A DNA stretch of 64,000 nucleotides from Raja brachyura (Eukaryota), in contig OY740807.1 of assembly GCA_963514005.1 (NCBI GenBank), positions 14,570,001 through 14,634,000 of the forward strand, given 5' to 3'. The notes under the pieces are model-generated. The model was not told where the DNA came from. It was given only the letters and a program-made list of their open reading frames with translations, and did not search any database. The position numbers and the translations under genes are program-made. Shown in pieces: positions 10,076 through 57,989 of the stretch. Each line of letters opens with the position of its first letter. The first letter of the stretch is position 1.

Positions 10076-10335
10076 AGAGGTAACGGTGAGGCAGCGCGGT
10101 TCGGCGTCATCGGTGGGCAGGTGAAGGTCGGCGGCAGCGGCCACGTGGAGAACGGCGACGGCTTCGGTGGTCCGGGCCTGAGATTGCTCAGGGAGGCGGT
10201 GAGTGTTGGTGCTGGTCCTCGTGGCAAATTTATCCTCTCTTTTAATCTTGTGATCCCATCAGTTCCTTAGAGAGAGACTTTTATTGAAATAAAGTCAGGA
10301 GACTTTCATTGAAATAAAGGTTGGACTCTGAGGAA

Positions 10336-10389
10336 GGGGTGGAAGATTGCAACCTTCACATGGTCCGCCCTGTTTCGACTAATGCAATC
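10336..10389 (+). ncRNA. Predicted minimal HDV-like self-cleaving ribozyme
   Basis: P1 GGGGTGG/CCGCCCT (G1-U wobble), P2 GATTGCA/TGCAATC, P3 ACC/GGT, L3 TTCACAT, and J4/2 CTAA with putative catalytic C10379. Folded by eye. Confidence 0.72.
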
Positions 10390-10493
10390 GACTCGACGTG
10401 CACAAACGGAAGATCAAATAGAACAAGTTGTCCAACAACTTTAGGCTGTGCACGCCACACGAAAGAAGAAGAAGAAGAAGAAGAAGAAGAAGA
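10336..10493 (+). mobile_element. Short non-autonomous retroposon (SINE-like) with 5' HDV-like ribozyme and (GAA)n tail, copy 1
   Basis: TSD CTGAGGAA at 10328-10335 and 10494-10501; (GAA)n tail; near-identical to 57298-57500 and starts at the same nucleotide. Confidence 0.85.
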
Positions 10494-12480: not shown

Positions 12481-12700
12481 TGTAGAAACAAAGTACTGCA
12501 GATGCTGGTTAATACATAAAAGGACTCAGAGTACTGAGTAATTCAGCAGGTTAGGCAGCTTATCTGGCCAACATGGATAGATGATGTTTTGGGTCGAGAA
12601 GACCCTTCTTCGTGTCTGAAGAAGGGTCTCGACCCGAAACATCATCTATCCATGGTCTCCTGAGCTGCTGACTTTCTCCTGCACTTTGTGTCCTTTTCAG
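12481..12700. mobile_element. Palindromic Penelope-derived element with central hammerhead-like cores
   Basis: Inverted arms around ...GACCCTTCTTCGTGT-CTGAAGAAGGGTCTCGACCCGAAACATC. Confidence 0.75.
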
Positions 12701-12829
12701 TGTAAATAGTTCTTCTGCTTCCTTACCTTATCAGTTCTTATTCTGACTGGTCCCATTGACACCGATGTTGGAGATTCAAAATTTGAAACATTGCCGCACA
12801 AAGAAAAAGTCCAATGCATGATAAAATAA

Positions 12830-14250
12830 CATCATAAAATAAACTGGCTGGCCACGTGGGCTGTGAGGAAGATTGCCAATTGCTGGATAATAGAGAAGTT
12901 TGCCTGACATGTACACAAGCCAACTGAATGGGCTAATACGTGGCAGATGGATTATGAGGTCATCTATCTAATCGAAAAAAATAGGAATGGGAAATGATTG
13001 TTTGAAATGGTGAGAGATTGAAATGTGTTGGTGTTCAGAGGGGCTGGGTATTCTTATGCATGAATCACTGATAGTTATCGTAGATATCACAACCGGTTAG
13101 GAAGCCAAATGGTATTTTAGCCTTTATTTCAAATGACATTGAGGTCAACGGTAAAGATGGTTTACACAAATAAATGAGATCTTGGGGGTGGGGTGCGGTG
13201 CATTTGGAACATGATGCGAGAATCAGCTCTCCTTACAAAAGCTGTTATTATTAAATAAAACTGCGGCTGATTCTTAATCTCAGTGCCACATCCCTGTAAT
13301 AATTCCACATCCTTGAATCTGTTCTGCCATTCAATCAGACCATGGCTAATTTGACTGTAACCTCAATTATGTACTCCTATGTCCCTGTGATATTTCAGCT
13401 CACCTTGTATATTATACATTTATCTACTGCTATCTTCAAAATGTTCAAACTGTTTGCTTCCACCACTATTTAATGAAGAGATTTCCAAAGCCTTGCAATA
13501 CATTTTTTTCTCTCATATCTGTCTTAAATGGTTGACACTTTAATGTTAAACTGAGCTTCTTCTTCAATATTCTCCGATATTAAAAAATTCTCTCCACAGC
13601 CACTCTGTCAAGGTCCCACGGATCTTGTTTCTTTCAATCTAGTCCATCACCTCTCTTCTAAACACCATTGACAAGCCTAGTCAGTCCAACCTTGGCTCAT
13701 AAAGCAACTTTACCAATTCAGGTATCTGTCTGAAGAAGGGTTTCGGCCCGAAACGTTGCCCATTTCCTTCGCTCCATAGATGCTGCCTCACCCGCTGAGT
13801 TTCTCCAGCATTTTTGTCTACCATCTGTTTGATTAACCTTCTTTGAATTGAGGATGTATTAGCCTCCATCTCCGTACACTGCAGTCTATCTCCATTTAGA
13901 TAATATTTTTTTTCATTTTTTATGGCAAGGTGAATCATTTTATATTTTCTCTCAATTTATTCTGATTACTAAATCTTTGTCCACTCATTTAACCTTTGTT
14001 CCTTTGGAGCCATGTTTCTCATTCACAACTTATTTTTGTTTGTGGCATCAGAAAAGTTAGCATCCATTCCTTTTCAGTTTCATGCATTCCCAGTTGATTA
14101 AAGGTTTGAGGGCCCAGTGCCGATTCTTATGGTCTTATGGTAAAAAAAAACAGCCAGGTACGCCCACTCTTTGTTTCCTATTAATCAGCTAATTTTAAAT
14201 TGCACCAATATGTTACCTCCTACAATATGAGGTTTCATTTTCCTCAATAA
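12830..14250. mobile_element. Cluster of old CR1 fragments (+ strand ~12830-13250; - strand ~13260-14250)
   Basis: Decayed TKLAG.V.CEED..L..D motif on +; minus ORF IHLAIKNEKKYYLNGDRLQ is a CR1 C-terminal motif. Confidence 0.6.
13730..13822 (+). mobile_element. Penelope-derived insert with well-preserved minimal hammerhead core
   Basis: CTGAAGA-A-GGGT-TTCG-GCCC-GAAA-CG-TT; flanking direct repeat ATCTGT at 13724-13729 and 13823-13828. Confidence 0.8.
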
Positions 14251-14257
14251 CCTTTGA

Positions 14258-14536
14258 TTTGTTTAGTTTACAGATATAACATGGAAATAGGCCCATCAAG
14301 TCCACATCAGCCAACGATCACCCATATACTAGTTCTATTCCACATACTAGAGACAATTTACAGAAGCCAATAAACGTACAAACCTGCACGTCTTCAGAAT
14401 GTGGGAGGAAATCGGAACAGCTGGAGAAAACCTACACGTTCATAGGGAGAACGTACAAACACCATATAGACAGTACCTGTTGTCAGGATCAAATCTGGGT
14501 CTCTGGCGCTGTAAGGCATCAATTCTGTGCAGCCCC
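14258..14536 (-). mobile_element. HE1-like SINE
   Basis: TTTAG-type tail, CR1-derived 3' end, core, and B-box-like GTCAGGATCAAATCTGGGTCTCTGGCGCTGTAAGGC on the reverse strand. Confidence 0.85.
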
Positions 14537-18444: not shown

Positions 18445-20155
18445 ATTGAGTATTTCTCCTATGTATTTACCGAGGAGAAAGACAATAGGACGGAAGAACT
18501 TGGGGCAATCAATGGAAGTGTCTTGAAAGCAGTCAGTGTTACTGTCGAAGAAGTACTGAAGGTACTGTCGTGTATAAAGGTAGACAAATCTCCAGGGCCT
18601 GGTCAGATATATCCGAGGACATTGCGGGAAATTAGAGAGGAAATTGAGGGAGCCTGGTTGAAATTTATGAGTCGTCCTTAGATACAGGAGAGGTGCCAGA
18701 ACACTGGAGAGTGGCAAATGATGTGCCTCTTTTCAAGAAGGGCTGCAGGGAAAATGCTGGGAACTATAGGCCGGTGAGCTTAACATCTGTAGTTGGAAAG
18801 TTACTAGAGAGTATTCTGAGGGATAGATTATGCAGGCATTTGGATGGGCGAGGGCTGATTAGGTATAGTCAGCATGATTTTGTACGCGGGAGGTCGTGTC
18901 TCACAAATCTGATTGATGTTTTTGAAGAACTGACCAAAAAGGTAGATGAGGGCAGAGCTGTAGATGTTGTGTACATGGATTTCAGTATGGTGTTCGACAA
19001 GGTTCCACATGGTAGGCTGCTCTGGAAGGTTAGTTCGCATGGGATCCAAGGAGAGGTAGCTGAATGGATAGCAAATTGGCACCATAGAAGGAAGCAGAGG
19101 GTGATGGTGGAAGGTTGCGTCTCGGACTGGAGGCCTGTGACTAGTGGTGTGCCTCAGGGTTCGGTGCTGGGCCTGTTACTGTTTGTCATCTACACCAATG
19201 ATTTGGATGAGAACATACAGGGCAAGATTAGCAAGTTTGCTGATGATACAAAAGTTAGTGGTTTTACAGATAGTGAAGATGGTTGTGAACAATTGCAGCA
19301 GGATCTGGATCGATAGGCAGGTGGGCGGAGGAATGATTGATGGAATTTAATATAGAGAAGTGTGAGGTGTGGCATTTTCGGACGTCTAACAAGGGCAGGA
19401 CCTACACAGTAAATGGTAGGCCTCTGGGTAGTGTTGTAGAGCAGAGGGATCTCGGAGTACAGGTGCATGGTTCCTTGAAGGTCGAGTCGCAGGTAGATAA
19501 AGTGGTCAAAAAGGCTTTTGGCACATTGGCCTTCATCAGTCAGAGTATTGAGTATAGACGTTGGGAGGTGATGTTGCAGTTGTATAAGACGTTGGTGGGA
19601 TGGCATCTAGAATATTGTGTTCAATTCTGGCCACCATGTTATATGAAAGATATTGTCAAGTTTGAAAGGGTTCAGAAAAGATTTACGAGGATGTTGCCTG
19701 GACTAGAGGGTGTGAGCGAAAGGGAGAGATTGAGTAGGCTGGGTCTCTATTCCATGGAGCACAAGAGGATGAGGAGTGATCTTATAGAGGTGTGCAAAAT
19801 CATGAGAGGAATAGATCTGGTAGATGCAGTCTCTTGCCCAGAGTAGGGGAATCGATGACCAGAGAACATAGGTTGAAGGTGAGAGGGAAAAGATTTAACA
19901 GGAATCCGAGGGGTACCTTTTTCACACAAAGTATAGGGTATAGGGAACAAGCTGCCAGAGGAGGTAGTTGAGGTTGGGACTATTCCATCGTTTAAGAAAC
20001 AGTTAGAAAAGTACATGGATAGGATAGATTTGGAGGGATATGAACCAAGTGCAGGCAAGTGTGACTAGTGCAGCTGGGACATTGTTGGCCGGTGTGGGCA
20101 AGTTGGGCCGAAGGGCCTGTTTCCACACTGTATCACTCGTTGACTCTCTCTATGA
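18445..20155 (+). mobile_element. CR1/HER1-like LINE, 5'-truncated (RT domain + 3' UTR), pseudogenised
   Basis: WRVANDVPLFKKG..NYRPVSLTSVVGKLLE...RSCLTNL...VYMDFS..FDKVPH...GVPQGSVLG...SKFADDTK; frameshift into ORF 19337; CR1 tail. Confidence 0.95.
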
Positions 20156-21780: not shown

Positions 21781-24089
21781 TTCTAAACTGATTGCTCGGT
21801 TTAATTACAGGGCAATTCGGTGTTGCTCTTTACATTCCTATCAGCTGTTGTTCTGTTCAAGTAAATTTATTTAACCTCAAGCTGCCTCTCACATGAAAAA
21901 CTCAATTAATAGACACGTGACAAAAACACACAGTAAATTCTGACTTCAGGTCGAAAATAGTTGAGGCAAGGACAGCAACACCATTCTAAAAACACTGTCC
22001 TGGGCAAAAGCTACCCAGGCTTGCTGTTTCCTATCTTACATGGCTGTGTGTTCAGTAGCAAGTGAAGTCTGCCTCTGTGTTCTGTGAATTTCCCTGGAGC
22101 TCCGGCTGAGCCTGGAGCCGGGAACGTGAACTGGAGCAAATGCATTTGTGAATTAGGGGGAGGGGAGGGTCATGAGCATGAACCTGGGCAGGCTGCTCCT
22201 TCCCCCAGGCAAATCCCAACCGCTGCCCCAGGATGTGACCTGTCACTTCACATAGCTGGTGATGAGTTGCAGGACTGTTGGTAAAGGTGAAGACTGTGCA
22301 GAGAGGGAGGAAGAGAGGAAGACAGAGAGAGATAAAACAAAAAGCATCAGCCTGGTGGAAATAGTTTCACAGGGAGAAAAAAATCCAGACCATTAGGAGA
22401 AGAAACCTGGTAAAAAAACCTGGCTGCTATTTTTTAGGAAAGAGAAATCATTGCCAGTGCTTGAAGCCAAGACACATCTCACTCTGAGCCTGGGCTTGAT
22501 CTCCATTGTAACCATTTGACAGCTACATCAAATGAGTTACTTCAGGTCCAAGAGTAATGAAGTGCTCGCCGCCCAAGCTGCATGCCCAGCTTTTCGTTCG
22601 TTTGAACTTGACTGTGTTTTAAGATAACTTTGCAAAATTGCAAACACATTAGCATTTCTGGAGATTAAGGAGCTGGTGCTGGAGAGACAGGGGACTCTGC
22701 CACGCAGCTGGAATAAGAATCCACATCTTTGCAACTCCAGAGGAAATGTTCCCTTTTAAGAGTCACCACTGGAATCACGAGGTTCTGAAGTTTAACATAT
22801 TACATATGCCTGCACTAACACAAATTAAGCAGGACCAGGGGTTTCCTAGAGCAGTGCCCATGTTAGGGAAAGGAAGGGACACCTGACACAACATGTCTAG
22901 TCGTGTCAGGTGAATGGGAGATATCCAAGACTAAGCCAGTGCTGAGGTTAAGAAAGTGGATGGATGCCAGATGGATGTGCACTTTTAGCAAGGGTAAATT
23001 TGATTAAACGGATCTTGATATATGAAAACAACTAAAGATGGGTTATGGGGATGTTTGGAGTATGTTGTACTGAGAGGAATCCCATTATTGAAGTAAATAG
23101 ATGCAATATTAGAACCAGAAATGAAGCAAGAATTGGAATAAAAGGGGAAAACAGAGAACTGGCATGGGGGGTGTGTAAGCATTTTTGGGCAGGTGAAATG
23201 TTATGGGTTGGATAGATTATAGATGGAACTAGGCACCCATCAGGTTAGATTTGGGTACTTCAGGTGGGAATATGGGAAGGATTTCAGAGGATCAAGGAGG
23301 AATTATAGATGGATTTATCAGCATGTACCTGTGGGGCTAGGGACAGGCGAGGGGGAGGAGGCTGGGGAGGGGTGAAGGAGGCCTAGGAGAGGGGGATTCA
23401 AGTGGAAGGTAATTGAGCTGATACATTAACTCTGCTTGTCGCTCTTTACAGCTGCTACATAGCTTTCTAACTATTTCCAGCACTTTTTAAAAATTTCAGT
23501 AGAGGGGTTTTGAATTTTTTAAATATTTCAGTAGAGGGGTTTTGGGTCAGGCTTGGAGTTTGGTGTGAGCAGGGCTGGGAGGGGAAATTTAGTAAACCAG
23601 GGAGGATCTACGGGCTAGGGCTAAGAGGGCAGAACCATAAGCTGTGAATTTGGAAAGTCAGGAGTATAACTCGGAACTTGGAGTGGGATATAAAAGAGTG
23701 TGTAGGTGGGAGTGGAGTAGATGTGGGCAGGTATGGAAAAAAGGGTGCATTTGGATTGATAGGGGTGTGGAGGTGGACTGGTTTTTGTATATATGGTGTA
23801 ATCTCCTTAAACCAAACAACAAAGTTAGTACAAGTCATGTTCTTCTGGATCAATGAATAGAAACATGCCCAGAAACATTCACCTCAGAATTCCGCAATTA
23901 AAGTACTACTGTAATTAAAAGCTTCCTTTTTCAAGTGAGGCTGGATGGGAAGTGTCAAAATGTATGTTTTATTTGCAAAATGTTAACACAAAAAAACCTC
24001 AGATATTACACATCGTGTAACCTGAACTTAATGGGCACCTGCATGTCATTTAAAAAAAGAACGCAGAACAAATAGTACACCACAATACT

Positions 24090-24262
24090 AAGCGCTGAAA
24101 GAACCCTGGATCAGGCAGCATTTAAGGAAGGAATGGGCAGGCAACATTTTGGGTTGGGACCCTGTTCAGACTCTGCTTCCTCAGATGCTGTCACACCCCT
24201 GAGTTACTCCAGTAAGTTGTATTTTGCTCAAGATTTTAGCACCTGCATTTCCTTGTGTCTCC
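24090..24262. mobile_element. Degenerate palindromic Penelope-derived element
   Basis: CAGGCAGCAT...TTTTGGGTTGGGACCCTGTTCAGAC...GATGCTG...GAGTTACTCCAG. Confidence 0.55.
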
Positions 24263-24559
24263 ACACAATAGTACAACATGGGAACAGGCCAATGATGTCA
24301 GTGTTGAACATAATGTCAATCCCATCTGCTTTTATATGGTCCAGATCCCTCCATTGCCTACCTGTTTGTGTCCCTGGCGAAAAGCCTCTTAAGTGTTATT
24401 ATGCTACGTGGTTCTACCATTTTCCCTAACAGCACATTCTAGGCATTTCTACACGCTGTGTAATAAAACCTGCCTCACTAATTTTCTCCATCACATCTTA
24501 ATTGAATGTCCTTCTTGGCAGAAGAGGCTGCAGGTTTTGAGAATGGCATCTGAGTAAGT

Positions 24560-29020: not shown

Positions 29021-29340
29021 GTCACAGTGGCGCCGCTGTCCAGCTGCCACCTCACACCGCCAGAGACTCGTTTGATCCTGACCTTGGGTGCTGTCTGAGT
29101 GGAGTTTGCACATTATGAGAACAAGTGGGTTTTCTCAGGATGCTCCAGTTTCCTCCCACATCCCAAAGATATTCGGATTCCTAGGTTACTTGACCTCTGA
29201 AAATTGGCACTTGTGGGTAGGGAGTGGATGCAATAATATAAAACTAGTGTAAACAGGTGATCTGGGCCAATGTGGACACGGTGGGCCAAAGGGCCTGGCT
29301 GCTTGCTGTATCTCACAATCAATTTGTTCAATCAATCAAT
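29021..29340 (+). mobile_element. HE1-like SINE
   Basis: GTCACAGTGGCGC...TTTGATCCTGACCTTGGGTGCTGTCTG...core...GGGCCAAAGGGCCTG...TCAA tail. Confidence 0.8.
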
Positions 29341-31555: not shown

Positions 31556-32837
31556 ATCTCATCATACATGCAAACACAGGAAACAAGGTGAGTTATGGAA
31601 CAACTTTTATCTCCTTTGTTTTTGCAACTGATTTAGTGCAACATGAAAGTGGTGAATCTGAAAGTGCAGTTATCTGACTAGATATATTTAAATACAATAC
31701 GGTATTTTATCCTTTTTATTTTCAACGCCAGCCTGGCGTTCAGTTTTGCACTTGCTTAGGGCAAAAATAACTGTCTGGCTGAACAGTCGCAGCATAGTAA
31801 CACACCACAGCTGGGTCCAATTACCAGCTACATCCTTGTAATGCCTCTCACTAACAAGGATAATGCGAGTGCGACTGTGAGCCTATGGATGCCGTAAAAG
31901 TTAGGTCAGGCATGTGAGAATAACAAATGAAAATATGAAACTAAAGTGACAGGAAATACAGTAGCATCCATCTTAAATGAAAACATTCTTGTGAGACTGA
32001 GCCACAGTGGCGCCTTAACCCCTCTGTGCTCTGCTGTTTAAATAATTTCTATTTTCAACAGCTAAGAGGTGTGTTATTGATGAGCAAGAGTTAATGGTAG
32101 AAAACATTAATCCATCTAACAATCCACACCGGCAAAGGGAGATATGCAAACTCCACAGTCTCTACGAACCAGAGTCAGATTCAATCTGGGTCTCTAGCTG
32201 TGTGAGGCAGCAGCTCTACCAGCTGCACCACGCATGCAGTAATGGTTGGTATTCAATGTAGAAATGGCAGTTCTATTCATAAAAACAGTACCTGCTCTTC
32301 AAATTAATTTTATGTGAAGTGTTTTGACAAGTTTAAAGAATGATGATTCAATAAACATCAAGGAAGTTAGGTACTTGGGACACTTTCACCCTCCTCCCCT
32401 TTAAAATATATTGCACTGGGAGGGTTGAATTCACTTTTTTTTTTAAATGGACAAAGAATTCTCATTAACTTTTAACATCCTGATGTGTTTTCCCAGTTTA
32501 TGCTTCTTTCAATGTTGGTGTTTGAAGAGTGAGTGATAATGACTTCATCAGGTTTGCAGGATATATCCAGAATGACAGTGTCAGGCATATGAATTAATAT
32601 ACAGTCCCACTGACACAATCTCTGAAGCACTCCGGGTTAATGAGCGTATCTGAAATGTTAATTCAACCCAAGCTCATGAATGAGTTCAGTAATTCCTTCC
32701 TGCCTGGTTTCTTGTCCTTTAGCACTTGTTAAAATAAAAACTAAAATCAAATTTAATTCTAGACATTTGACCAGCACAATTAAAAAAACCGTGAGAACAT
32801 GCCTGATCCTGGACAAAGCTACATTGTATTTTATGTA

Positions 32838-32985
32838 TTCAAGAGAGAGTTAGATATAGCTAATGGAATCAAGGGATATGGGGAGAAAGCAGGAACGGGG
32901 TACTGATTTTGGATGATCAGCCATGATCATATTGAATGGCGGTGCTGGCTCGGATGATGATGGGATGGGATGGGATGGGATGGGA
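32838..32985 (+). mobile_element. CR1 3' end followed by a (GGGAT)n microsatellite
   Basis: TTCAAGAGAGAGTTAGAT...GATCAGCCATGATCATATTGAATGGCGGTGCTGGCTCG (same as 42090-42210), then GGGATGGGAT repeats. Confidence 0.85.
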
Positions 32986-33590
32986 GGGAAGGACAGGGTG
33001 GGGCTGGGTGGTGGAGGGGTTGGGACGGGGTGAGGCGTCAGGGTTCGCTGCTCTACAGGATAGAGATTTCCAAAAGGTTACAACAGAAGATATCCCTCCC
33101 TATCTCATTTTATTGCGACAAACCTTCAAGGCTACAATTTCCAGATTCCACCAACATTGCAACCACCCTCATAAAATCTACCATGTCAAGATCCTGCATG
33201 GGGTCTCTCATTTGTTTCAATTCAGTTTTTCCTCTTTAAACAATCCCCACCATTCAATCTAGTGAATCTTCTCAGTACCGATTTTGTAGCAGGAATAGGG
33301 AGACCAATGCTTTATGCGCTATTTTGAGGGATGGCTTCACCAAGAAATTGCCCAGTGCAGCAAGATTTCCTTACTCCTGCCATTCAACGCTTTGAAACAA
33401 AGCCCAACATTTCATCTGCCTTCCTGCATACTCGTACTGCATGCTAGTTTTCTGTGATGCCATTAGAGAAGGCAAAGAATTCCTTCAAAGAGAGACATGT
33501 GAAAGAAAGGATGACCCTTAATGATCCTGCACCAAAAAAAACTTCTCACTTAAATCAATTGACAGAGGCTTCCATACACGTTGCCCTTTG

Positions 33591-33902
33591 ATTGATTGAT
33601 GTCAAGATACAGCATGGAAATAGGCTACAGCTCAAGGCGACCATCGATTACCTATTTACATCCTAGTTCTGTGTTATCCCACATTTGCATCCAATCCCTA
33701 TAGACTAGGGACAATTTACAGAGGCCAACTAACTTACAAACTACTCGTCTTTGGGAGGTGGTAGGAAATTGGAGCACCCCAAGGAAATCACACAGTCATA
33801 GTGAGATTGTGCAAACCCCACACAAACAGCACCCAAGGACAGGATCAAACCCAGATCTCGAGCCCTGAGAGGCAGCAGCTCTACCTGCTGTGTCACTGTC
33901 CC
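33591..33902 (-). mobile_element. HE1-like SINE
   Basis: Reverse-strand tail, core and tRNA head (CAGGATCAAACCC...GAGGCAGCAGCTCTACC). Confidence 0.8.
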
Positions 33903-35022
33903 GTTACACACACACCAGTTACTCCGAATGGGCCTGTTGCCCCCCTAGTCAGCAGGACTCCAACTTAAGTGGGAAAACCCAAATGAATTTCGGGGTCCAA
34001 CCAATTTCTGGTCCAGCCACTTGAACAATGGCTTTTGGAAGTGGTTTCTGCACTGCTGCTGAGCTTCTGCTACTCAATAGTGTCTGAAAAGTTATTGGTT
34101 CCCTTACTTGACAGGGACAGATATTCCTACCACAATGGACCAGAGTCACTCCACTTTCACAAAATTCCCAACCAGAAAACAATTGTGATCACTGAATGTT
34201 TTTTTTCAACATGCTGCAATAGAAATGTAAGGAGCAGGAACAAGTTATGGAGTCTTTTCAGAATATCCTGCTATTCAAATAGATCATGGATGGTCAGGGG
34301 TCTGCACAAAGAATTTGGGATAAGGAAGGGCATGGGACATGCTTGTGTGTATGTTCACCAAATATTAGCAAATCCATATCCAAATCTGTTCACATGCTTC
34401 TGTTGCTGCTGACCAGCTGTTGTGGGGAGAATGCCTTTGAGATTTGATGCTCAATAGTAGTTGAAAAACTGATGACAACTGCGCCAAATTGAACATATTA
34501 TCATCGAGAGATGCATAAGTACAGTTTCAGTACACATATTATAAGCCAACCTCTTACCAGATTAAACACTTCTTCATGATAATTTCATGATGTATTTTAT
34601 AGGGGACTGAATTCAATGTCAGGGTGAAACCTAACAGCAGTTCCAGAGCACCTTAAATGGGTGAAATATAATTTTTAGTCTGATGCGTTATATTGTTGCT
34701 CTGAAGTCTGCCAGGGTATTTTATTAAATTAAAAATATATATATTATAGCCATAGAATTAGCATCACCTGTCAACTTCAATGCCAATTCACATCCAAATA
34801 ATTCTGGACTGGGTGATCCAGGGGCAGTTTCATTAAAATTCAGTATTTCCTAATAGCACAAATGTTCTTTATGAGCACATGGTTCCAAAAGGGTCAATAA
34901 GTCAGCTGACGACCTGATGAAGTCCATTGAAGACAATCACACCTAACTGAGGAGACCAAGGCAGAAACTGTAAAATGCAATCCACAATCAAAGCATTTGG
35001 ATTTGCACATTATTGATGAAGG

Positions 35023-35248
35023 AGATAGACACTAAATGCTGGAGCACCTCAGTGGGACAGGCAGCATCTCTGGATAGAAAAAATAGGTGACATTTCGGGT
35101 CGGGGCCCTTCTAGAGATTGAAGAAGGGTCTCGACCCAAAACGTCAACCATTCCTTCTATCCAGAGATGCTGCCTGTCCCACTGAATTACTCCAGCATTT
35201 TGTGTCTATCTTTGGTTTAAACCAACATCTGCAATTCCTTCCTACACG
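35023..35248. mobile_element. Palindromic Penelope-derived element with 10-bp TSD
   Basis: Inverted arms of ~90 bp around two degenerate hammerhead cores; TSD TTGATGAAGG at 35013-35022 and 35249-35258. Confidence 0.88.
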
Positions 35249-35597
35249 TTGATGAAGGTGAGTTTTTTTTAGAGTACTGGGCATCAGACAGCAATGGCTG
35301 AAGGCTTCAAGGAATCAGGATAGCAAACTAGTTGCCCAAAAAAGTGACATAATTTATTCTGTAGTGAAGATAGCAGGCCCAATGTTAGTTTAATATAATT
35401 AGTTTTCTTAATACACTGCAATGCAGCCATTTATACTTAACATACCCCTATATTGATTTATACAAGTGGATACTAGTACAGCTGTGACAGCATTACTCTA
35501 AAGTGGGCTGGTCAGCAATCTGCATATATTCGAATTTCAATGATTTCTAAAGAATATTTTTATCTCTTTGGAGAGTATTGCTGTGTGTTTCTCACAT

Positions 35598-36657: not shown

Positions 36658-36948
36658 TTTTGTTTTGTTTAGTTTAGAGATACAGCGCGGAAACAGGCCC
36701 TTCGGCCCACCGAGTTCGCACTGACCAGTGATTCCTGCACATTGATGCTATCCTACACACACTCGGGCCAATTTTACAATTGCAATTATACCAAGCCAAT
36801 TAACCTACAAACATGTACGTCTTTGGAGTGTGGGAGGAAACCAACGCACGTCAAGAGAAGAACATACAAACTCCGTTTAGACCAGCACCCCTAGTCAGGA
36901 TCGAACCCGAGTCTGTAAGGCAGCAACTCTATCGCTGCGCCACCGTGC
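36658..36948 (-). mobile_element. HE1-like SINE, nearly full length and young
   Basis: TTTAGTTTAGAGATACAGCGCGGAAACAGGCCCTTCGGCCC tail; CAGGATCGAACCC (B box); CGCTGCGCCACCGTGC (A box). Confidence 0.9.
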
Positions 36949-38885
36949 TTTTTAACACTAATGAGCAAAGAACAGTTTGTCATCCATCCTCAGCACCATC
37001 AATTTATTGATTATGGTGTTGTTGCTATTTCTCTCAGATTTTCTGTCTAGAATTGGAGAGTTACTTACTGCAGATGGAAAGTATCTTATGTTACACAAAT
37101 TAACAGCCAGTAATGAATGATAAATGGCGATGATGTTCAACATTGTATTTGTACCTCCCTGGGGATACAGTTCTCCAATTCATTCTCCACAATATGTTAC
37201 CACACATGGCTGGGTACTGTCAGAAAATACCACAACAATTTCTAATCTAGGGGACTTATAGAAAGCTTTCAATTTTTGGATTTTTATCCCATTGTTTATC
37301 CCACCAAAAATCCCTGGATTTTCCTATGTGAGATTGCCACCGTTTCCCATCAATACTGTCTGGAAACACAGGACTCTCACAGTAAGGTATGAATATGGAA
37401 AATCCAAACTTCCCTACTTGTTGTTCTGTCTGTACTCTGATCTTGGATTCCTCATTTAAAAAAAAACAAGAATTTTAGAATTTTGCAACCATATAATTAA
37501 GTTTTAGTCATTTTTTGGCACTCAAAAACTGATAGCTGAGGTTGTGGCTAAACTGTTTGCCAAAGCATTACTTTGTGCAACATTTTCTGTTTCCATAGAT
37601 CCACTTCAATCATGTTAAAACAGAGTTCTTGGATGAAATACCATTGGAAAATCCACTCCTGTAAGTATGGATTTCCCAGGAATGGATGGACTACACTCCG
37701 AGGAAACTTTCAGCCATTAACTTTGAATGACAATGACTGTTTACTTGCATTTTCCAAATAATTAGTTTGTCCCTATTCTTACTACTAAACTACACGAGCT
37801 CACAGTTATCTATTGAACTTTAGTTGCTAATTATCTCCCCATGTTTTAACATGCACATAACTTTATATAGACTGAAGTGACAATAAACTAAGGTAATGAT
37901 TGGAATAGGGTCCCCATGTTTCCATGCTGTTGAAGGAACAGTTGGTGCCACGTTAAAGCCACCCCTCACATGCTTCTCACTTCCAAATGAATCTACCAGC
38001 AGAACTGTTCACTCTTTTGAGATTGCTTTTCAGCCAAGTACCATCCACTGTCCGAAACATGACAAACCAATGACACAAGACATTGCTTGTAGATGTGATA
38101 ATTGGCACATCCAACATTTGAATATGATTATAATTTTGTGTACTTTCTTTCTGCATTTCTTCAATTTAATACAGCGAATGTCAGGTGATGCACACCACAT
38201 TAAAGGTTTTCATAGGTGAATATTAGGATGCCTGCAGATTCTGTTGTGCTCTGGGCTCAGCCGGTGGGGCTCGCTCTGAATGCGCCTATAGGACTGATTC
38301 AAAGCATAAGCACAGCTGTAGGCAGGCTACTGTGGTGAAGTGACATTTACCTAATACAGCTGTAAATTTACAGATAATTACTGGGCAACTGACAATGATG
38401 CACTCTGACAAATACACTACCAATGTCCTTAAAAATCATGTGATTCCTACAGAGATTTAAAATTTTTAAAAGGCCAACTCCACCCTCATTAGAATTGCTG
38501 ATAAAATAAAAAGTCACATATTATTAGACAGCAGAGCCCATTTAACAGAAAACAGACTAAAATCACAAGTTCCAGGTGGAACCTATTTCAGGTGGCAGTT
38601 GACTGGTGGGATTATGAGGCCCAGACGTTAAACGTGACCAGGTCTTCCAACACAGAACCCTGGAGAGAAACTACATTGAGAGTTTCCCAGTTGGAATGTT
38701 CTCCACTTCCACCCCTAAACGGAGTGTATGCAATTACCTGTCCTTGAATATGGCATCACCATTAATAGGCAAGTAGAACGTCAATGGACTTCAAGAAAAT
38801 ATCATTCTGTGTTGCCAAATACAAAAGTCAGAAGAACTGTAGGTGCTGTGGGTTATTCTGTGCCAGTTGCATTGGTCTTCTAAGA

Positions 38886-39310: not shown

Positions 39311-39867
39311 CCCAAGAGGGTCAAACAAGATTATAGCCTATCACTACATCCCAGTGTATAACGTACAATAAGATATATAATACTTAATTTAATATGACAA
39401 AATATTGCAAGGTATTTGTAGAATACACATCTACAATGATGTGCAGAATGCAATAAATACCTCAATATATTTTTCAATTAGGCAATACACTGATTCAGGC
39501 ATGGTGGACTATAAACAGGAGTTTAAGTATTTTGGAAGATCTCCAATATGCAGTGACATCAAATAAAAATTCTGTTAGGTCATGTTATTTTCAGATAGTA
39601 TTTAAGGTTAACTTTCTAAACCAATATTTTGCTATTGGGGTTTTAAGAATAGTGTTCGATGCCGATTTGAATTTTTCTTGTGGGACCTGTAATATGTTTT
39701 TGTCAGTAATCAAAGTAGAAATGATAAACTTTCTGGCAATATGATTCCATAACATATGATTACATAACATATGTAGCATGACAGGATGGGATCAGCCCCT
39801 CCAAGATGCTGGAAAGTGATATCCATTTTGCTATTTATAACTTGTGGAGAAGTTATCATTTGAAACC

Positions 39868-42250
39868 AATATGTGGAAGAACTGACTGGAGGACAGGCCA
39901 TCCTCGACTGGGTATTGTGTAATGATGAAGGATTAGTTAGCGATCTTGTTGTGCAAAGCCCCTTGGGCAACAGTGAGCATAACATAGTGAAATTCTGCGT
40001 CAGGATGGAAAGTAACACAGTTAATTCAGAGACTAGGGTCCTGAACTTAAAGAAGGGAGACTTTGAAGGTATGAGACGGGAATTGGCTTGGTTAGACTGG
40101 CAAATTATACTTAAAGGGTTGACAGTGGAGATGGAATGGCAAAGATTTAAAGACCGCATGGATGAACTACAAAAATTGTTCACCCCTGTCTGGCGAAAAA
40201 ATAAAATGGGGAAGGTGGCTCAACCGTGGCTGATGAGGAAAATCATGGATAGTGTTAAATCCAAGGAACCAGCATATAAATTGGCCTGAGAAAGCAGCAG
40301 ACTGGGAGAAATTTAGAACGCAACAGCGGAGGACAAAGGGGTTAATTAAGAGGGGGAAAAAGCAGCATGAAAGAAAACGCAGGGAATATAAAAACTGACT
40401 CTAAAAGCTTCTTTAGATATGTAGAAAGGAAAAGATTAGTGGAGACAAATGTAGATCCCTTACAATCAAAGACATGTGAATATATACTATGTGAATATAT
40501 AATGAGAAAAAAAGAAATGGCAGAACAGTTAAACGAGTACTTTGGTTCTGTCTTCACTAAGGAAGACACAAACAATCTCCCAGAAATAGTAGGGGACTGA
40601 GAGTCTAGTGGGAGGGAGGAACTGAAGGGAATCCACATTAGTCAAGAAATGGTGCTAGGTAAACTATTAGGACTGAAGGCAGATAAATCCCCAGGGCCTG
40701 ATGGTCTGCATCCCAGAGTACTCAAGGAGGTGCCCCTAGAAATAGAGGATGCATTGGTAATTATTTTCCAATGTTCTCTCGACTCTAGGTCAGTTCCTGT
40801 GAACTGGAGGGTAGCCAATGTAACCCGACTGTTTAAGAAAGGAGGGGGAGAGAAAACGGGGAATTATAGACCAGTAAGCCCTACAGAGGTAGTGGGGAAG
40901 ATGCTTGAGTCGATTGTTAAAGATGTTATAGCAGCGCATTTGGAAAGCAGTGACAGGAAAGGTCAAAGTCAGCAAGGATTTATGAAGGGGTAATCATGCT
41001 TAACTAATCTTCTGGAGTTTTTTGAGGACGTAACAAGTAGAATGGATAAGGGAGAGCCAACGGATGTGGTGTATCTGGACTTTCAAAAAGCCTTTGACAA
41101 GGTCGCACACAAGAGATTAGTGTGCAAAATTGGAGCATATGGTATTGGAGGGCTGGTATTGACATGGATAGAGAACTGGGTGGCAGACAGGAAGCTAAGA
41201 GTAGGAATTAATGAGTCCTTTTCAGAATGGCAAGCAGTGACTAGTGGGGTGCCGCAAGGCTCGGTGCTGGGACCCCAGTTATTTACAATATATATGTTAA
41301 CGATTTAGACGAGGGAATTAAATGTGACATCTCCAAGTTTGCAGATGCCACAAAGCTGGGTGGCAGTGTGAGCTGCGATGAGGATGCTATGAGGTTGCAG
41401 GGTGACTTGGATAGGTTGAGTAAGTTGGCAGAAGCAGTATAATGTGGATAAATGTGAGGTTATCCACGTTGGTGGCAAGAACTGGAAGGCAGATTATTAT
41501 CTGAATGGTGTCAGATTCGGAAAAGGGGAGGTGCAATGAGACCTGGGTGTGCTTGTACATCAGTCACTGAAAGTAAGCATGCAGGTACAGCAGGCAGTGA
41601 AGAAAGATAATGGCATGTTGGCCTTCATTGTGAGAGGATTTGAGTTTAGGAGCAAGGAGGTCCTACTGCAGTTGTACAGGGCCCTGATGAGACTGCACCT
41701 GAGATATTGTGTACAAATTTGGTCTCTTAATTTGAGGAATGAAATTCTTTCTATTGAGGGAGTGCAGCATGGGTTCACCAGGTTAATTCCCGGGATGGCG
41801 GGACTGACATATGATGAAAGAATGGGTTGACTGGACGGGGTTCACTGGAATTTAGAAGAACGAGAGGGGATCTTATAGAAACATATAAAATTCTTAAAGG
41901 ATTGGAAGACCAGATGCAGGAAAAATTTTCCCGATGTTGGGGGAGTCCAGAAACAAGGGTCACAGTTTAAGAAATAAGGAGTAGGCCATTTAGGACTGAA
42001 ATGAGGAAAAACTTCTTCACCCAGTGAGTTGTGAATCTGTGGAATTCTCTGCCACAGAAGGCAGTGAAGGCCAATTCACTGATTGTTTTCAAGAGAGAGT
42101 TAGATTTAGCTCTTAGGGCGAATGGAATCAAGGGATATGGGGGAAAAACACAAACTGGGTACTGATTTTAGATGATCAGCCATGATCATATTGAATGGCG
42201 GTGCTGGCTCGAGGGGCCAAATGGCCTACTCCTGCACCTATTTTATCTGT
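39868..42250 (+). mobile_element. CR1/HER1-like LINE, ~2.4 kb (end of APE endonuclease, RT, 3' UTR), pseudogenised
   Basis: ILDWVL..PLGNSEHNIV (EN SDH motif); KSPGPDGLHPRVLKE; NYRPVS; YLDFQKAFDKV; GVPQGSVLGP; SKFADATK; tail GGCCTACTCCTGCACCTATT. Multiple stops and frameshifts. Confidence 0.95.
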
Positions 42251-43478
42251 GTTCCCAAACCTGCTTTTAACAATAATCCTGAAATAACTCAACAACCCTT
42301 CAAAGTTCTGCAATAATTTCCTTTAGGAATTTGCCCCTTGCACTCCAAAACATGTCTGGAGAATATGTGACTGAGAAAGATGGAAGAGAAAGGATGAAGG
42401 ATACCAGGAAGACTGCTTTTTCCCAAAGCCTTCCTGTGAACCTTGTCACTTCCTTTTCTTGGCGGTTGCTTTGCTCTGATTTGCAACAAAAATATACACT
42501 TGTTTCACTTCCAGCAAGAAACCCATTCCTTATTTGGATAATCTGCCAGAATGTAAACGCATCTTAAGAATTGAAAGAAATCGCGGGGTGATTGTTCAGT
42601 AGCTAATGCTGGTTTCAGATACAATAAAGTCAACAAACTGGATGATTGTTAAGGTTAATTGTGACCCCGCAGGAAAGTGGTAACAAGTAAAAGTGAAGAA
42701 CACCCAAGAGGACAAATTCCTAGTGCCATGAGAAATAAACAACAGGAGGGAATTATTTCCTTTGGCAACTGCTACCTCCTGACTTAAAGCTCAAAGGAGC
42801 AGTGGGAATGCCATGGTCCAGCTTGCTCTGCATTTACCCTACAACATTTGCTTGTATTGCAATCCTATTTTTTAAAATCACAATTCAATTTGTGTCACGA
42901 TTTCTGCACAGCCCAAGGGTGAATCTCAGCTGTGATAAATCACCTTCCACTTCACAAGTTGCTAATCCGAGCGATCGAGAAGAAAAAAATTAAAACCATT
43001 TTGCAGCCTTTGAAAGAGCAATGGAATTCTCTCAGGTTTTCAAACCAGAAATTGTTAGCAGTGCACAGAAAGGATAGTGCGTAAATGACAGCTTCCAGAC
43101 GAAGCAAGATTTGTCAGATCTACTTTAATACAGGTGCAGTTTATCCATTTTTTATATGTGCAGCATTTGTATGTGGATGAAATAAAAAAAATAATTAGGT
43201 CTTATTTGTATTTCCCTGTTAGGCAACACACCATTCACAAAAATATAGTCACTGGAACAGCAAAGTCATCAGATGAAAAGGTATAAAAACACACAGAACA
43301 TCTTTGAGCATACTTTCAGCCTGGGTAGAATTCACTCAAAGAATTAGGCTTGTAGGACTGATGCAACATGTCATGTCGTATGCCAGTGCAAATGCGAATC
43401 CATTGAAGTCAGTGAATATCATGTATGTAAGGTCTGATGAAGAGTCCAGCATCTATCCCTGTGTAAATCATGCTCTAA

Positions 43479-43659
43479 GGTAGACAAAAGTGCTGGAGAA
43501 ACTCAGCGGGTGAGGCAGCATCTATGGAGCGAAGGAAATGGGCAACGATTCGGCCCAAAACATTGCCTATTTCCTTCGCTCCATAGATGCTGCCTCACCT
43601 GCTGAGTTTCTCCAGCACTTTTGTCTACCTTCGATTTTCCAGCATCCGCAGTTCCTTCT
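43479..43659. mobile_element. Palindromic Penelope-derived element with 15-bp TSD and deleted centre
   Basis: GGTAGACAAAAGTGCTGGAGAAACTCAGC.../...GCTGAGTTTCTCCAGCACTTTTGTCTACC arms; TSD TAAATCATGCTCTAA at 43464-43478 and 43660-43674. Confidence 0.9.
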
Positions 43660-46369: not shown

Positions 46370-48015
46370 TAATGCCCTCCATAATGTTTGGGACAAAGAC
46401 CCATCATTTATTTATTTGCCTCTGTACTCCACAATTTGAGATTTGTAATAGAAAAAATGCATATGTGGTTAAAATGCACAATGTCAGATTTTATTAAAGG
46501 CCATTTTTATACATTTTGGTTTCACCATATAGAAATCACAGTTGTGTTTATACCTAGCCCCCCATTTCAGGGCACCATAATGTTTGGGACATATGGCTTC
46601 ACAGGTCTTTGTAATTGCTCAGTATGTTTCATTGCCTCCTTAATGCAGGTATAAGACCTCTCAGCACCTAGTCTTTCCTCCAGTCTATCCATCACCTTTG
46701 GAAACTTTTTTTGCTGTTTATCAACATGAGGACCAAAGTTGTGCCAATGAAAGTCAAAAAAGCCATTGTGAGACTGAGAAACATGAATAAAACTGTTATG
46801 GACATCAGCCACACCTTAGGCTTACCAAAGTCAACTGTTTGGAACATCATTAAGAAGAAATAGAGCACTGGTGAGCTTACTAATCGCAAAGGGACTGGCA
46901 GGCCAAGGAAAACATGCACAGCTGATGACAGAAGAATTCTCTCTATAATTAAAAAAAAATCCCCAAACACCTGTCCGACAGATAGAAACACTCTTCGGGA
47001 GTCAGGTGTGGATTTGTCAATGATCATTGTCCGCAGAAGACTTCATGAACAGAAATACAGAGGCTACACTACAAGATGCAAACCACTGGTTAGCCGCAAA
47101 AATAGGATGACCAGCTTACAGTTTGCGAAGAAGTACTTAAAAGAGTAACGACAGTTCTGGAAAAAGGTCTTGTGGACAGATGAGACGAAGATTAACTTAT
47201 ATCAGAGTGATGGCAAGAGCAAAGTATTGAGGAGAGAAGGAACTGCCCAAGATCCAAAGCATACCGCCTCATCTGTGAAACACGGAGGGGGTGCTATGGC
47301 CTGGGCATGTATAGCTGCGGTAGGTACTGGTTCACTGATCGTCATTGATGATACAACTGCTGATGGTAGTGGCATAATGAATTCTGAAGTGTATAGACAC
47401 ATCCTATCTGCTCACGTTCAAACAAATGCCTAAAAACTCACTGGCCGGAGGTTCATTCTACAGCAAGACAATGATCCCAAACATACTGCTAAAGCAACAA
47501 AGGAGTTTTTCAAAGCTAAAAAATTGTCAATTCTTGAGTGGCCAAGACAATCACCCGATGTGAACCCTATTGAGCGTGCCTTTTATATGCTGAAGAGAAA
47601 ACTGAAGGGGACTGGTCCCCAAAACAAGCAATAAGCTAAAGATGGCTGCAATACAGGCCTGGCAGAGCATGACCAGAGAAGACACCCAGCAACTGGTGAT
47701 GTCCATGAATCGCAGACTTCAAACAGTTATTGCATGCAAAGGATATGCAACAAAATACTAAACATGACTACTTTCATTTACATGACGTTGCTGTGTCCCA
47801 AACATTATGGTGCTCTGAAATGGGGGCACTATGTATAAACGCTGCTGTAATTTCTACATGGTGAAACCAAAATGTATAAAAATGGCCTTTATTAAAATCT
47901 GACAATGTGCACTTTAACCATATGAGATTTTGTCTATTACAAATCTCAAATTATGGAGTACAGAGGCAAATAAATAAAGGCTGGGTCTTTGTCCCAAACA
48001 TTATGGAGGGCACTG
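46370..48015 (+). mobile_element. Full-length Tc1-family DNA transposon with IR/DR ends (~1.65 kb)
   Basis: Inverted repeats of ~222 bp (46370-46591, 47794-48015), each with two CCATAATGTTTGGGACA direct repeats; TA immediately left; encloses the transposase. Confidence 0.95.
46726..47761 (+). pseudogene. Tc1 DD34E transposase, disrupted
   Basis: MRTKVVPMKVK..GRPRK..WTDETK..KHGGG..QQDNDPKH-(D34E)-WPRQSPDVNPIE..GYATKY*; in-frame stops at 46861, 47146 and 47431, plus frameshifts. Confidence 0.93.
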
Positions 48016-50245: not shown

Positions 50246-51640
50246 AGGGCCTGTCCCACTTAGGCTATTTTTAGGCGACTACCGGCGACTGTCGTAGCAG
50301 GTCACCGAAAAAACGGCGACTGGACCCCCCCTTGACATAACATTTGAAATAGAATAATTACGGGAGCACCTCAAGGCTGCGTGCTCAGCCCCCTGCTGTA
50401 CTCACTCTATAATCATTACTGCATAGCCGGTCATAGTGCGAACTCCATCATCAAGTTCGCTGACGACACCACTGTTGTGGGACGTATCACTGATGGGGAT
50501 AAGTCAGAGTATAGAAGAGAGATCGAGCAACTGTCCATATGGTGCCAGCACAACAACCTGGCCCTCAACACCAGCAAAACCAAGGAACTGATTGTAGACT
50601 TTGGAAGGAGTAGGATGGGGACCCACAGTCCTGTTTATATCAATGGGTCGATGGTTGAAAGGGTCAAGAGCTTCAAATTCCTGGGCGTGCGCATCTGTGA
50701 AGATCTTTCCGGGTCCGAGAACACAGATGCAATTATTAAGAAAGCGCCTCTACTTCCTGAGAAGATTACGGAGAGCTGGTCTGTCAAGGAGGACTCTCTC
50801 TAACTTCTACAGGTGCACAGTAGAGAGCTTGCTGACCGGTTGCATCGTGGCTTGGTTCGGCAACTTGAGCGCCCTGGAGAGGAAAAGACTACAAAAAGTA
50901 GTAAACACTGCCCAGTCCATCATCGGCTCTGACCTTCCTTCCATCGAGGGGATCTACCACAGTCGCTGCCTCAAAAAGGCTGGCAGCACCATCAAGGACC
51001 CACACCACCCTGGCCACACACTCATCTCCCTGCTACCTTCGGGTAGAAGGTACAGGAGCCTGAGGACTGCAACGACCCGGTTCAGGAATAGCTACTTCCC
51101 CACAGCCATCAGGCTATTAAACTTCTCTCGGACAAAACTCTGAACATTAATATCCCTCCATCTGTTGTTTGCACTTTATTAATTTATTAATTCATGTATG
51201 TATTTACGTGTATAATTGTAGTCAATGCCTACTATGTTCGGTTGTGCTATGCAAAGAAAGAATTTCATTGTCCTGTCAGGGACACATGTCAATAAACTCT
51301 TTTGACTTGACTTTGACTCTGATTACTTTAACAACAAAAAAAAACAAAGTCTGCACCAGCGACAACCTACGTCACCTGGCAACACCCTACGTTAACCTGG
51401 TGACAACCTACATTAACCTGGCAACAACTACGACAGCACCTACGTCAGGAGAAGTCAAGCTACGCTCATTGGTGTCAAACCCACTGTCGCCGACTGCCTC
51501 TGAAAAATTTGTTGAAAATCCAGCGGTGATCAGAAAGACGATACGACACTTTGGGCGATTGAGGAGACCTCTCACGACCATGTGGCTACAGCCTAGTCGC
51601 CTGTAGTCATCTAAAAAATCACCTAAGTGGGACAGGCCCT
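50246..51640. mobile_element. Non-autonomous DNA transposon (TIR AGGGCCTGTCCCACTTAGG) carrying a nested LINE
   Basis: TIRs at 50246 and 51640, both flanked by CTAA; internal ~21-bp tandem repeats at 51360-51430. Confidence 0.85.
50360..51318 (+). mobile_element. Rex1/Babar-like non-LTR retrotransposon, 5'-truncated
   Basis: TGAPQGCVLSPLLYSLY..KFADDTTVVG..LALNTSKTKELIVDF..RLYFLRRLR..FYRCTVES..RFRNSYFPTAIRLLN; AATAAA followed by a (TTGAC)n tail; one frameshift. Confidence 0.9.
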
Positions 51641-53036: not shown

Positions 53037-53180
53037 TGTAGGAAGGAACTGCAGATGCTGATTTAAACTGAAAATAGACACTAAAAACTGGAATAACTCG
53101 GCAGGAAAGGCAGCATCTCTGGAGAGAAAGAATGGGTGATGTTTCAGGTCGAGACCTTCAGAATGAAGAGGTTGAAAACC
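53037..53180 (-). mobile_element. Penelope-derived short element (one arm plus remnant centre)
   Basis: TGTAGGAAGGAACTGCAGATGCTG...GGCAGCATCTCTGGAGAG...GTTTCAGGTCGAGACCTTCAG. Confidence 0.75.
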
Positions 53181-53301: not shown

Positions 53302-53582
53302 GGGGTGGCATGGCGGTGCAGCAGTAGAGTTGCTGCCTTATAGCACCACAGACCCAGATTTGATCCTGACTACGGGTGCTGTATGTACAGAATTTGACAT
53401 TCTCCCTATGACTACATGGGTTTTCTCTGGATATTCCGGTTTTGCCCACATCCAAAAGAAGTGCAGGTTTGTAGGTGAATTGGCTTCTGTAAATTGTTCC
53501 TGGTGTGTAGGGTGGAACTGGTGTATGGTAGATTGCTGGTCGATGTGGACTTGGTGAGCTGAAGGGCCTGATTCCATATATA
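53302..53582 (+). mobile_element. HE1-like SINE
   Basis: GGCATGGCGGTGCAGCAGTAGAGTTGCTGCC...TTTGATCCTGACTACGGGTGCTG...GAAGGGCCTG. Confidence 0.85.
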
Positions 53583-56739: not shown

Positions 56740-56932
56740 TACAAAACAAAACGGTTGGAAATATTCAGCTAGTCAGTCAGCATCTCCGGAGAGAGGAACA
56801 GACGTTTCAGATCAATGACTCTTCATCAGAAAATTGATGAAAAAGAGATTCTGAAGAAGAGTCATGGACCTGAAACGTTATTTCTGTTTCTCTCCCCACA
56901 GTTGCCACCTGAGCTGAGTTTTCCAGCACTTC
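56740..56932. mobile_element. Older palindromic Penelope-type element with hammerhead-like cores on both strands
   Basis: Minus strand CTGATGAAGAGTCATTGATCTGAAACGTC; plus strand CTGAAGAAGAGTCATGGACCTGAAACGTT; degenerate arms. Confidence 0.65.
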
Positions 56933-57297
56933 ACAAATCCTGAAAATCCGAAATCAAATAGTTTCTAATTTATAATAATCAACAGCTGGTTCATTGCATT
57001 TGTAATTGGATTTGATCTGCGTGGATCCAATGCCATTTTATGCCATTTAAATGCCATTGGTGCAACTTTGAAGATTTCCTAAGGTGCGACAGAGTGCTAG
57101 GCTTTCTCCTCTGTTAAATCCTAAAGTATACAAACATATTCAATGGGCACCACTGTACACCTGAAATGTCATGAAACACTTTGAAAACCCTAACTCACGT
57201 CAGTATTACACATTGTCCCAAGATTGCCTGCAAAACCTGGAAATTGGGTGGCAATTGTTAACGTAGGAATTGCATTCTGTAAAATCAGAACTATTGA

Positions 57298-57351
57298 GGG
57301 GTGGAAGATTGCAACCTTCACGTGGTCTGCCCTGTTTTGACTAATGCAATC
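57298..57351 (+). ncRNA. Predicted minimal HDV-like self-cleaving ribozyme
   Basis: P1 GGGGTGG/CTGCCCT, P2 GATTGCA/TGCAATC, P3 ACC/GGT, L3 TTCACGT, J4/2 CTAA (C57341). Confidence 0.72.
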
Positions 57352-57419
57352 AACTCGACGTGCACAAACGGAAGATCAAATAGAACAAGTTGTCCAACAA
57401 CTTTAGGCACGCCACACGA

Positions 57420-57453
<34 letters not shown>

Positions 57454-57500
57454 AGAAGAAGAAGAAGAAGAAGAAGAAGAAGAAGAAGAAGAAGAAGAAG
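57298..57500 (+). mobile_element. Short non-autonomous retroposon with 5' HDV-like ribozyme and long (GAA)n tail, copy 2
   Basis: TSD AACTATTGAG (57289-57298 and 57501-57510); the body matches copy 1; ~80-nt GAA tract. Confidence 0.85.
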
Positions 57501-57677
57501 AACTATTGAGCACAAACCCATCTGCTGCGTCAAGGTATCCCTAATTATTATCCGTCACCACTCCTAGTCCACATGTAGCAGAAAACAGTCTATAATGAGC
57601 AATTGCTCCATCCAATATAAGGGCGAACTAAATTTGGCACACATAATCAACTTGGCATGACAGTCAAAGAAAGTCTT

Positions 57678-57989
57678 AGAGCATGGAAACAGGCCCTTCA
57701 GCCCAACGAGGCCATGCTGACCATCAACCTGTTTACATTAATCCTGCATTATTCCCACTTTGTTTGATTTTCATCACATTTCCATCAACTTCTGTCAGAA
57801 TGAACCACTCACCTACACACACACAATTAACCTACACTTTTTTGTGATGCTCTTACACAGCACCTGTAAGAACCCCATGTGGTCACAGAGAGAATTTGAA
57901 AACTCCACACAGACAGCACCCAACATCAGGATCAAACCTGGATCTCTGGCACTGTGAGGCAGTGGGTCTACTAACTGTGTCACTGTGCT
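57678..57989 (-). mobile_element. HE1-like SINE
   Basis: GCATGGAAACAGGCCCTTCAGCCC tail ... AAACTCCACACAGACAGCACCC...CAGGATCAAACCTGG head. Confidence 0.8.

Follow-up and report, generated by a model that had tools for sequence, protein, structure and literature searches.

We report that positions 35013-35258 in a 64-kb window of the Raja brachyura genome (the window being the whole stretch of DNA analysed) are a real Penelope-like insertion scar consisting of two head-to-head pLTR copies. Palindromes of this kind recur in the window. As judged from their arms, which group by locus and with different solos, no fewer than three source lineages gave rise to them as well as to solo pLTRs. We consider it probable that such an ORF-less two-pLTR insertion is generated anew during insertion, rather than being copied from a palindromic parent.

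Specifically, the earlier note on this DNA had described two inverted copies of a Penelope terminus, joined near their hammerhead cores, with one arm about 35 nt longer and a 10-bp target duplication (TSD) on either side, and at this locus all of these features were recovered (Table 1). Both arms are ≈80% identical to the end of a long Penelope-like element elsewhere in the window (8564-8686), they are inverted and meet head-to-head at the centre near the hammerhead cores, and the right arm overhangs the left one by 37 nt. The arms (35023-35112 and 35122-35211) are 87% complementary over 90 nt and differ at 13 out of 92 sites. The flanking 10-mer, TTGATGAAGG, is exact on both sides and occurs exactly twice in the 64-kb window; among 1000 random position pairs none had an exact repeat of ≥10 (at slack 3), the longest being 9. 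On the basis of this duplication the whole palindrome was inserted in one event, and the varying TSD length among the palindromes (10, 12, 15 bp, none) agrees with retrotransposition rather than cut-and-paste. Moreover, either strand folds into one long hairpin, as had been anticipated, with energies for the two strands of -140.7 and -154.1 kcal/mol (z-scores -20.5 and -19.0) and 0 of 200 shuffled sequences being as stable; uninterrupted pairing extends for up to 31 bp in the fold of the plus strand and up to 39 bp in that of the minus strand.

Table 1. Positions of the 35013 palindrome and of other pLTR-bearing features in the window
Feature	Position	Strand	Remarks
5'-truncated, frameshifted Penelope-like element: RT C-terminal part, cysteine linker, GIY-YIG	8566-10068	-	tblastn of P0001
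Palindrome, tail on left arm (~31 nt)	12482-12702	.	nearest relative solo 6155; tree support 96/97
Solo pLTR, intact minimal hammerhead core	13728-13822	+	one of 8 solos
Asymmetric palindrome	24083-24266	.	tail-bearing arm without first ~40 nt; 12-bp duplication with 1 mismatch
Left TSD copy	35013-35022	+	exact 10-mer; 13 nt if one mismatch is allowed, overlapping first arm bases
Short arm: inverted pLTR without tail, hammerhead core decayed	35023-35114	-	nhmmer E 9e-27
Head-to-head junction, 5' side of both hammerhead cores	35113-35118	.	~2 nt longer than 62547 junction
Long arm: sense-orientation pLTR; hammerhead remnant with C3 and G12 changed	35117-35211	+	nhmmer E 2e-30
37-nt 'tail' extension, one arm only	35212-35248	+	also in long element end and solos 6155 and 53037
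Right TSD copy	35249-35258	+	exact 10-mer
Young palindrome, core missing	43479-43659	.	15-bp duplication; arms overlap in 15-nt quasi-palindrome; 30-nt overhang; nearest relative solo 13730
More diverged variant, inverted pair	56740-56935	.	spacer ~21 nt; duplication at chance level
Palindrome, equal tail-less arms	62545-62742	.	no clear duplication (best 6 nt, 1 mismatch); nested in inverted-repeat element

A profile search identified 20 pLTR pieces in the window (the reversed-window control gave one weak match, E 0.24), and self-BLAST added the right arm at 56740. The resulting 21 pieces, which occupy ≈3.2% of the window, constitute six head-to-head pairs, eight solos (besides 13730, those at 3199, 6155, 10616, 25286, 36456, 53037 and 59233) and the end of the long element; hence short insertions number 14, the single long copy is 5'-truncated, and a full-length one is absent. 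The earlier note had listed further loci with the same architecture, and their agreement with 35013 is partial. At 12481 the layout is the same and the duplication is weak (9 bp with 1 mismatch), while 43479 has the duplication and the overhang and lacks a hammerhead core at its centre. The loci at 62547 and 56740 are both inverted pairs; the former has equal arms and no clear duplication, and the latter is more diverged, has a spacer and shows a duplication at chance level. Of the two supposed partial copies, 24090 is an asymmetric palindrome with a near-perfect 12-bp duplication, and 53037 turned out to be a solo copy with a tail. Taken over the six palindromes the duplication is clear in three, weak in two and absent in one, and tails measure 37 nt at 35013, 30 nt at 43479 and about 31 nt at 12481, with none at 62547. 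Single-arm copies also bear duplications, e.g. 13 bp at 25286. Differences between the arms range from 3/67 to 17/81 sites, as expected for insertions of different ages. We also noted that the 53037 solo is followed by approximately 9 nt (53157-53170) resembling the start of an inverted arm, which is either a tiny second arm or chance, and that a short remnant like the start of the more diverged hammerhead variant is present at 43433-43447, about 20 nt to the left of the 43479 duplication.

The pLTR with its tail corresponds to the end of the long element (8690-8566), which serves as reference for the pLTR unit, yet belongs to another subfamily than 35013; the 64-kb window lacks an autonomous partner for the 35013 subfamily. 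P0001 (named in NCBI as a Chiloscyllium punctatum protein), the only homolog found among 68 candidates, matched the long element by tblastn in three pieces with 54-56% identity (E 1e-52 and 8e-48) that span 8992-10068. The RT and GIY-YIG identity of the element was taken through P0001, whose own Pfam matches are just under the curated cut-offs, and a Pfam search with four fragments of the long element gave no match. A CX2-5CxxC linker between RT and EN marks the Neptune and Nematis clades and is absent from Penelope/Poseidon, according to the available text of PMC8557442. In P0001 this linker (C-x4-C-x2-C) is intact and the window copy carries a degenerate form. As judged from these sequences the long element is probably a member of the Neptune clade, which we prefer over Nematis because the latter is mainly a nematode clade. 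A GC-rich segment directly upstream of the truncated RT (10070-10266) has no match to P0001 or to Pfam and may have been captured or inverted when the 5' junction formed, and a different repeat lies within the 3' region of the element (8826-8980), with related pieces at approximately 32834-32952 and 42084-42253.

The pLTR copies have a sharp 5' boundary, located where hammerhead helix I begins: counting solos and arms together, 12 out of 20 short pieces start between -3 and +5 relative to the first base of the core, and in all six pieces examined at most 2 contiguous bases are in common with the native upstream sequence. Four of the six palindrome centres lie within ≈2 nt of one another and the other two differ more. 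The 62547 centre equals two arms overlapped at the native -3 boundary, those of 35013, 12481 and 24090 are about 2 nt longer, and that of 43479 coincides with a self-complementary stretch (7+1+7), no longer one being found in the 5' part of the solo nearest to it. Since solos also stop at this boundary, palindromes would have like centres even without inheriting them, and such likeness is not diagnostic of a family; moreover, the 43479 and 24090 centres could represent deletions that occurred later, so the alignment of junctions is weak evidence in either direction. With respect to what sets the boundary, the 60 nt at 8690-8750 are 82% pyrimidine on the strand of the element and end with AG just before helix I, and this tract could act as a splice acceptor, an initiator or a polymerase stop. 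A splice acceptor has been reported for D. virilis (available part of PMC4209133), and no spliced first exon was seen upstream of the solos. An initiator-like motif fits at -3, and also at -8, -14 and -122, with 13 matches per kb, and was kept only as a lead. The hammerhead cleavage site (+28) was considered as well and does not account for the common boundary.

Two solos (13730 and 25286) out of 18 pieces examined have a complete hammerhead, i.e. the core, a predicted helix II and C-G at 15.2/16.2. They resemble the minimal type I hammerheads of metazoan PLEs, as far as described in the accessible text of PMC4209133, with respect to the core, the extra base before helix II, the opening G-C of helix II and the palindromic C-G at 15.2/16.2. 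At 35013 neither arm passes the core descriptor, as C3 and G12 are changed in the long arm and the core is lost from the short arm; the suggestion that either strand carries a hammerhead motif thus stands for a remnant and fails for an intact core. Rfam gave five matches in the whole window, none of which was a hammerhead and three of which were sub-threshold miRNA matches on the 43479 hairpin. When whole palindromes are folded the probability of helix II is 0.00 (from 0.55 to 0.00 at 12481 and from 0.04 to 0.00 at 35013), and it is low also for two intact solos (0.09 and 0.00), which makes the comparison a weak one. Folds of single arms were in six out of six cases no more stable than those of shuffled sequences (z -1.3 to 0.3). 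Each palindrome strand presumably combines one sense core with its antisense, which is the opposite of the tandem layout that activates dimers, and in the predicted fold the mutated cores of 35013 would be buried in the hairpin; a working double ribozyme at this locus is unlikely. In Schistosoma, hammerhead pairs on opposite strands have been noted at distances of 100-700 bp (PMC4209133, available sections), whereas in the window palindromes the two cores abut and those at 35013 are mutated.

The earlier note favoured a single propagating, non-autonomous palindromic family and gave independent inversion at insertion as the alternative; the latter fits better, as the arms pair by locus. A strict count of private variants over 120 pairs was uninformative and shared non-majority states were used instead. 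Among the four complete palindromes the locus-wise pairing has 18 such states against a mean of 5.6 and ranks first among the 105 possible pairings; when CpG columns are included the figures are 22 and 7.6. The AU tests comprised 16 rows, solo 36456 and the arms of 24090 and 56740 being omitted as too short or decayed. They rejected the clades expected for one family, whether of long arms (p = 0.0015), the three tailed arms (p = 0.0002), short arms (p = 9e-8) or all palindrome arms (p = 6e-5). In the corresponding tree solo 6155 clusters with both arms of 12481, and solo 13730 with those of 43479 (support 95/93), the short arm of 43479 differing from solo 13730 at 1 out of 68 sites. The signal is weakest at 35013, where the arms share two non-CpG states and the long arm shares three with the left arm of 62547; a group of the 35013 and 62547 arms is not rejected by AU (support 30/0), nor is one of their two right arms (p = 0.26). 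If the two arms of a palindrome had undergone conversion once inserted, locus-wise kinship would likewise result, and the sample is six palindromes from one 64-kb window.

In the preferred scheme the GIY-YIG endonuclease would introduce staggered nicks that give rise to the target duplication, and the reverse transcriptase would start at the tail site and copy approximately 130 nt to the boundary just 5' of the core. The second arm would come from the same template lineage and end at the tail-less site; a single template is favoured because sister arms share variants. We prefer a fold-back or template switch at the 3' end of the cDNA via 1-7 nt of self-complementarity, while a second cDNA primed from the other nicked strand would fit the geometry equally well. 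Solo copies would be the same product minus the second arm, and the unit would subsequently decay as a neutral insertion. The layout, the duplication, the shared boundary and the kinship of the arms are observed; we infer the order of the steps and what sets the boundary. Several of these elements have precedents: an inverted pLTR, an optional 31-bp tail, an 8-10-bp duplication, a 15-bp overlap and a self-priming proposal are found in the available part of PMC3846280, and a tail is often present at only one end of Penelope-like elements (PMC8557442, as far as accessible). In vitro, a Poseidon enzyme cuts and extends both target strands, two internal start sites bound the tail, and hammerhead cleavage is dispensable for insertion (available text of PMC11167929).

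An alternative to generation during insertion is that several palindromic masters exist, with at least one in each subfamily, and that a Penelope-like enzyme re-mobilises their transcripts in trans. The strand that ends with the tail would then be the template, and loss of G12 in the tailed arm would shield it from self-cleavage. The pattern at the G12 site speaks for such masters: each of the four complete palindromes has CA at this CpG in one arm and CG in the other, the CA arm is the tailed one in the three with polarity, and CA was found in 5 of 9 arms and in none of the five non-palindromic copies covering the site (one-sided p = 0.063, post hoc). However, the site is a CpG, and we interpret the pattern as repeated CpG decay, given that three separate subfamilies show the change, the core-less 43479 among them, and that the short arm of 24090 also has CA; in addition, the tailed solo 53037 has kept G12. 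Small re-mobilised sub-lineages may nevertheless exist. No non-CpG state separated long from short arms among the four complete palindromes, in a test from which the G12 CpG escaped since the 43479 arms were trimmed there, and no arm-side marker outside CpG was found. The like centres at 35013, 62547, 12481 and 24090 and the unrejected group of 35013 with 62547 are also compatible with masters, although the centres differ by 0-2 nt among these four loci and by more at the other two. That pLTR sequences suffice in trans and that non-autonomous Chlamys elements exist (PMC3846280 and PMC8557442, in the parts available) adds plausibility, but re-mobilisation would require the enzyme to read across a duplex of ≈85-95 bp, and insertion in vitro did not depend on hammerhead cleavage (PMC11167929, accessible text). 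On balance we regard masters as unlikely. That some ORF-less palindromes are outright Penelope parasites, with hairpin RNAs re-mobilised in trans and a tailed arm that repeatedly lost G12 such that the template stays uncut, appears quite unlikely; if true, they would constitute a head-to-head, ribozyme-silenced non-autonomous retroelement and, with six per 64 kb, a large source of dsRNA.

Loss of the ORF after insertion offers a different route to the same end point. Here a longer insert (inverted pLTR, pLTR, ORF, pLTR with tail) would lose its interior as its direct pLTRs recombine in the manner of solo LTRs, and the product would be exactly like 35013. Published elements typically have this longer layout, and solo pLTRs have been explained by recombination or deletion (available part of PMC3846280), but the direct repeats would be only ≈95-130 bp, even the young 43479 is without an ORF, and beside the many short insertions the window holds a long copy only in 5'-truncated form, so we judge this route to be quite unlikely. 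Likewise, 35013 is short, non-coding, palindromic and flanked by a duplication, as would be a MITE whose arms are terminal inverted repeats for a DNA transposase. Such a MITE is already largely refuted, and can hardly be the answer, given duplications that vary in both length and sequence, ends that are asymmetric instead of symmetric terminal inverted repeats, arms that are homologous to a retroelement end, and duplications around single-arm copies as well.

The window contains several other repeats. The 62547 palindrome is nested inside a non-coding element (62411-63108) that has 67-nt terminal inverted repeats (85%), is flanked by TTAA on either side and repeats its terminal motif internally; this element looks like a TTAA-type MITE, and we take it to be Kolobok/T2-like. 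Two copies, 94% alike, of a ≈130-nt unit ending with (AAG)n (10335-10493 and 57297-57502, the second with a duplication of ≈12 nt) may be a young SINE-like unit or a truncated LINE end. A decayed Tc1-type DNA transposon (46373-48012) is bounded by 220-nt inverted repeats (91%), between which Pfam recognised HTH and DDE domains of a transposase, and decayed LINE reverse-transcriptase fragments are located at 18648-19846, 39864-41308 and 50348-51143. Moreover, a dispersed repeat of ≈300 nt, 66-79% alike (14291-14526, 29023-29324, 33589-33899, 36678-36955, 53319-53559, 57871-57988 and 61464-61775), is probably a SINE family. A search of 268 stop-to-stop frames of ≥62 aa, which short exons would escape, revealed no recognisable host gene; these frames gave RT and Tc1-type transposase matches, four sub-threshold matches and one ALKBH8_N match beside the RT in 50348-51143, which we presume to be part of the LINE and not a host gene. 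ARAGORN predicted no tRNA gene in the window.

The formation of tandem and inverted Penelope-like structures is stated in the literature to be undefined, and these minimal inserts are a record of the mechanism, being abundant, having intact duplications and carrying two arms that can be compared like LTRs. They also represent an annotation risk, as such units may be mistaken for MITEs or, as the sub-threshold matches at 43479 illustrate, for miRNA hairpins. The idea, raised in the earlier note, that the hairpins are a source of dsRNA has a precedent since inverted Penelope copies are reported to give rise to siRNAs in transgenic Drosophila (PMC3681739, available text). In the window no sign of transcription of the palindromes was seen, as there was no recognisable host gene among the frames searched and the classes of arm mismatches at five loci showed no consistent wobble bias; at 35013, 7 versus 2 favour the minus strand.

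Among known systems, metazoan non-LTR retrozymes (available text of PMC7229834) are likewise small, non-coding, hammerhead-bearing and possibly mobilised by PLEs. They are however head-to-tail tandems with canonical active hammerheads and circular RNAs, whereas the units in the window are head-to-head and dispersed with minimal, decayed cores. Identity with retrozymes was rejected, as there was no head-to-tail hammerhead array among seven tandem-repeat rows and no Rfam hammerhead match. For Poseidon PAc of Anolis (PMC11167929), the two start sites that bound the tail, together with extension on both strands, would yield the asymmetry of the palindromes; this element belongs to a different clade, and in the accessible main text inverted products are not reported and the 5' boundary is not addressed. 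The likeness to the Neptune clade is the C-terminal GIY-YIG of the long element and the C-x4-C-x2-C linker of P0001. ORF-less double-pLTR palindromes in cartilaginous fish are unnamed in the literature found, a search that extended neither to repeat databases nor to most subscription papers. Reviews and curation guides (PMC8557442, PMC8969392 and PMC2377424, as far as available) treat inverted pLTRs and a tail on one side as standard features, the layout has already been described for the Penelope-like class, and the palindromes do not stand up as a new mobile family. The closest likeness in layout is to EN+ Penelope-like elements such as Pen2/Pen2a of Adineta vaga, which in the available parts of PMC3846280 and PMC8557442 have head-to-head pLTRs, a one-sided tail of 30-40 nt, a short and variable duplication and palindromic or overlapping junctions. 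The examples described there keep an ORF or captured DNA between direct pLTRs, whereas the inserts reported here are two pLTRs of ≈95 and 130 nt and nothing else, with six of them in 64 kb.
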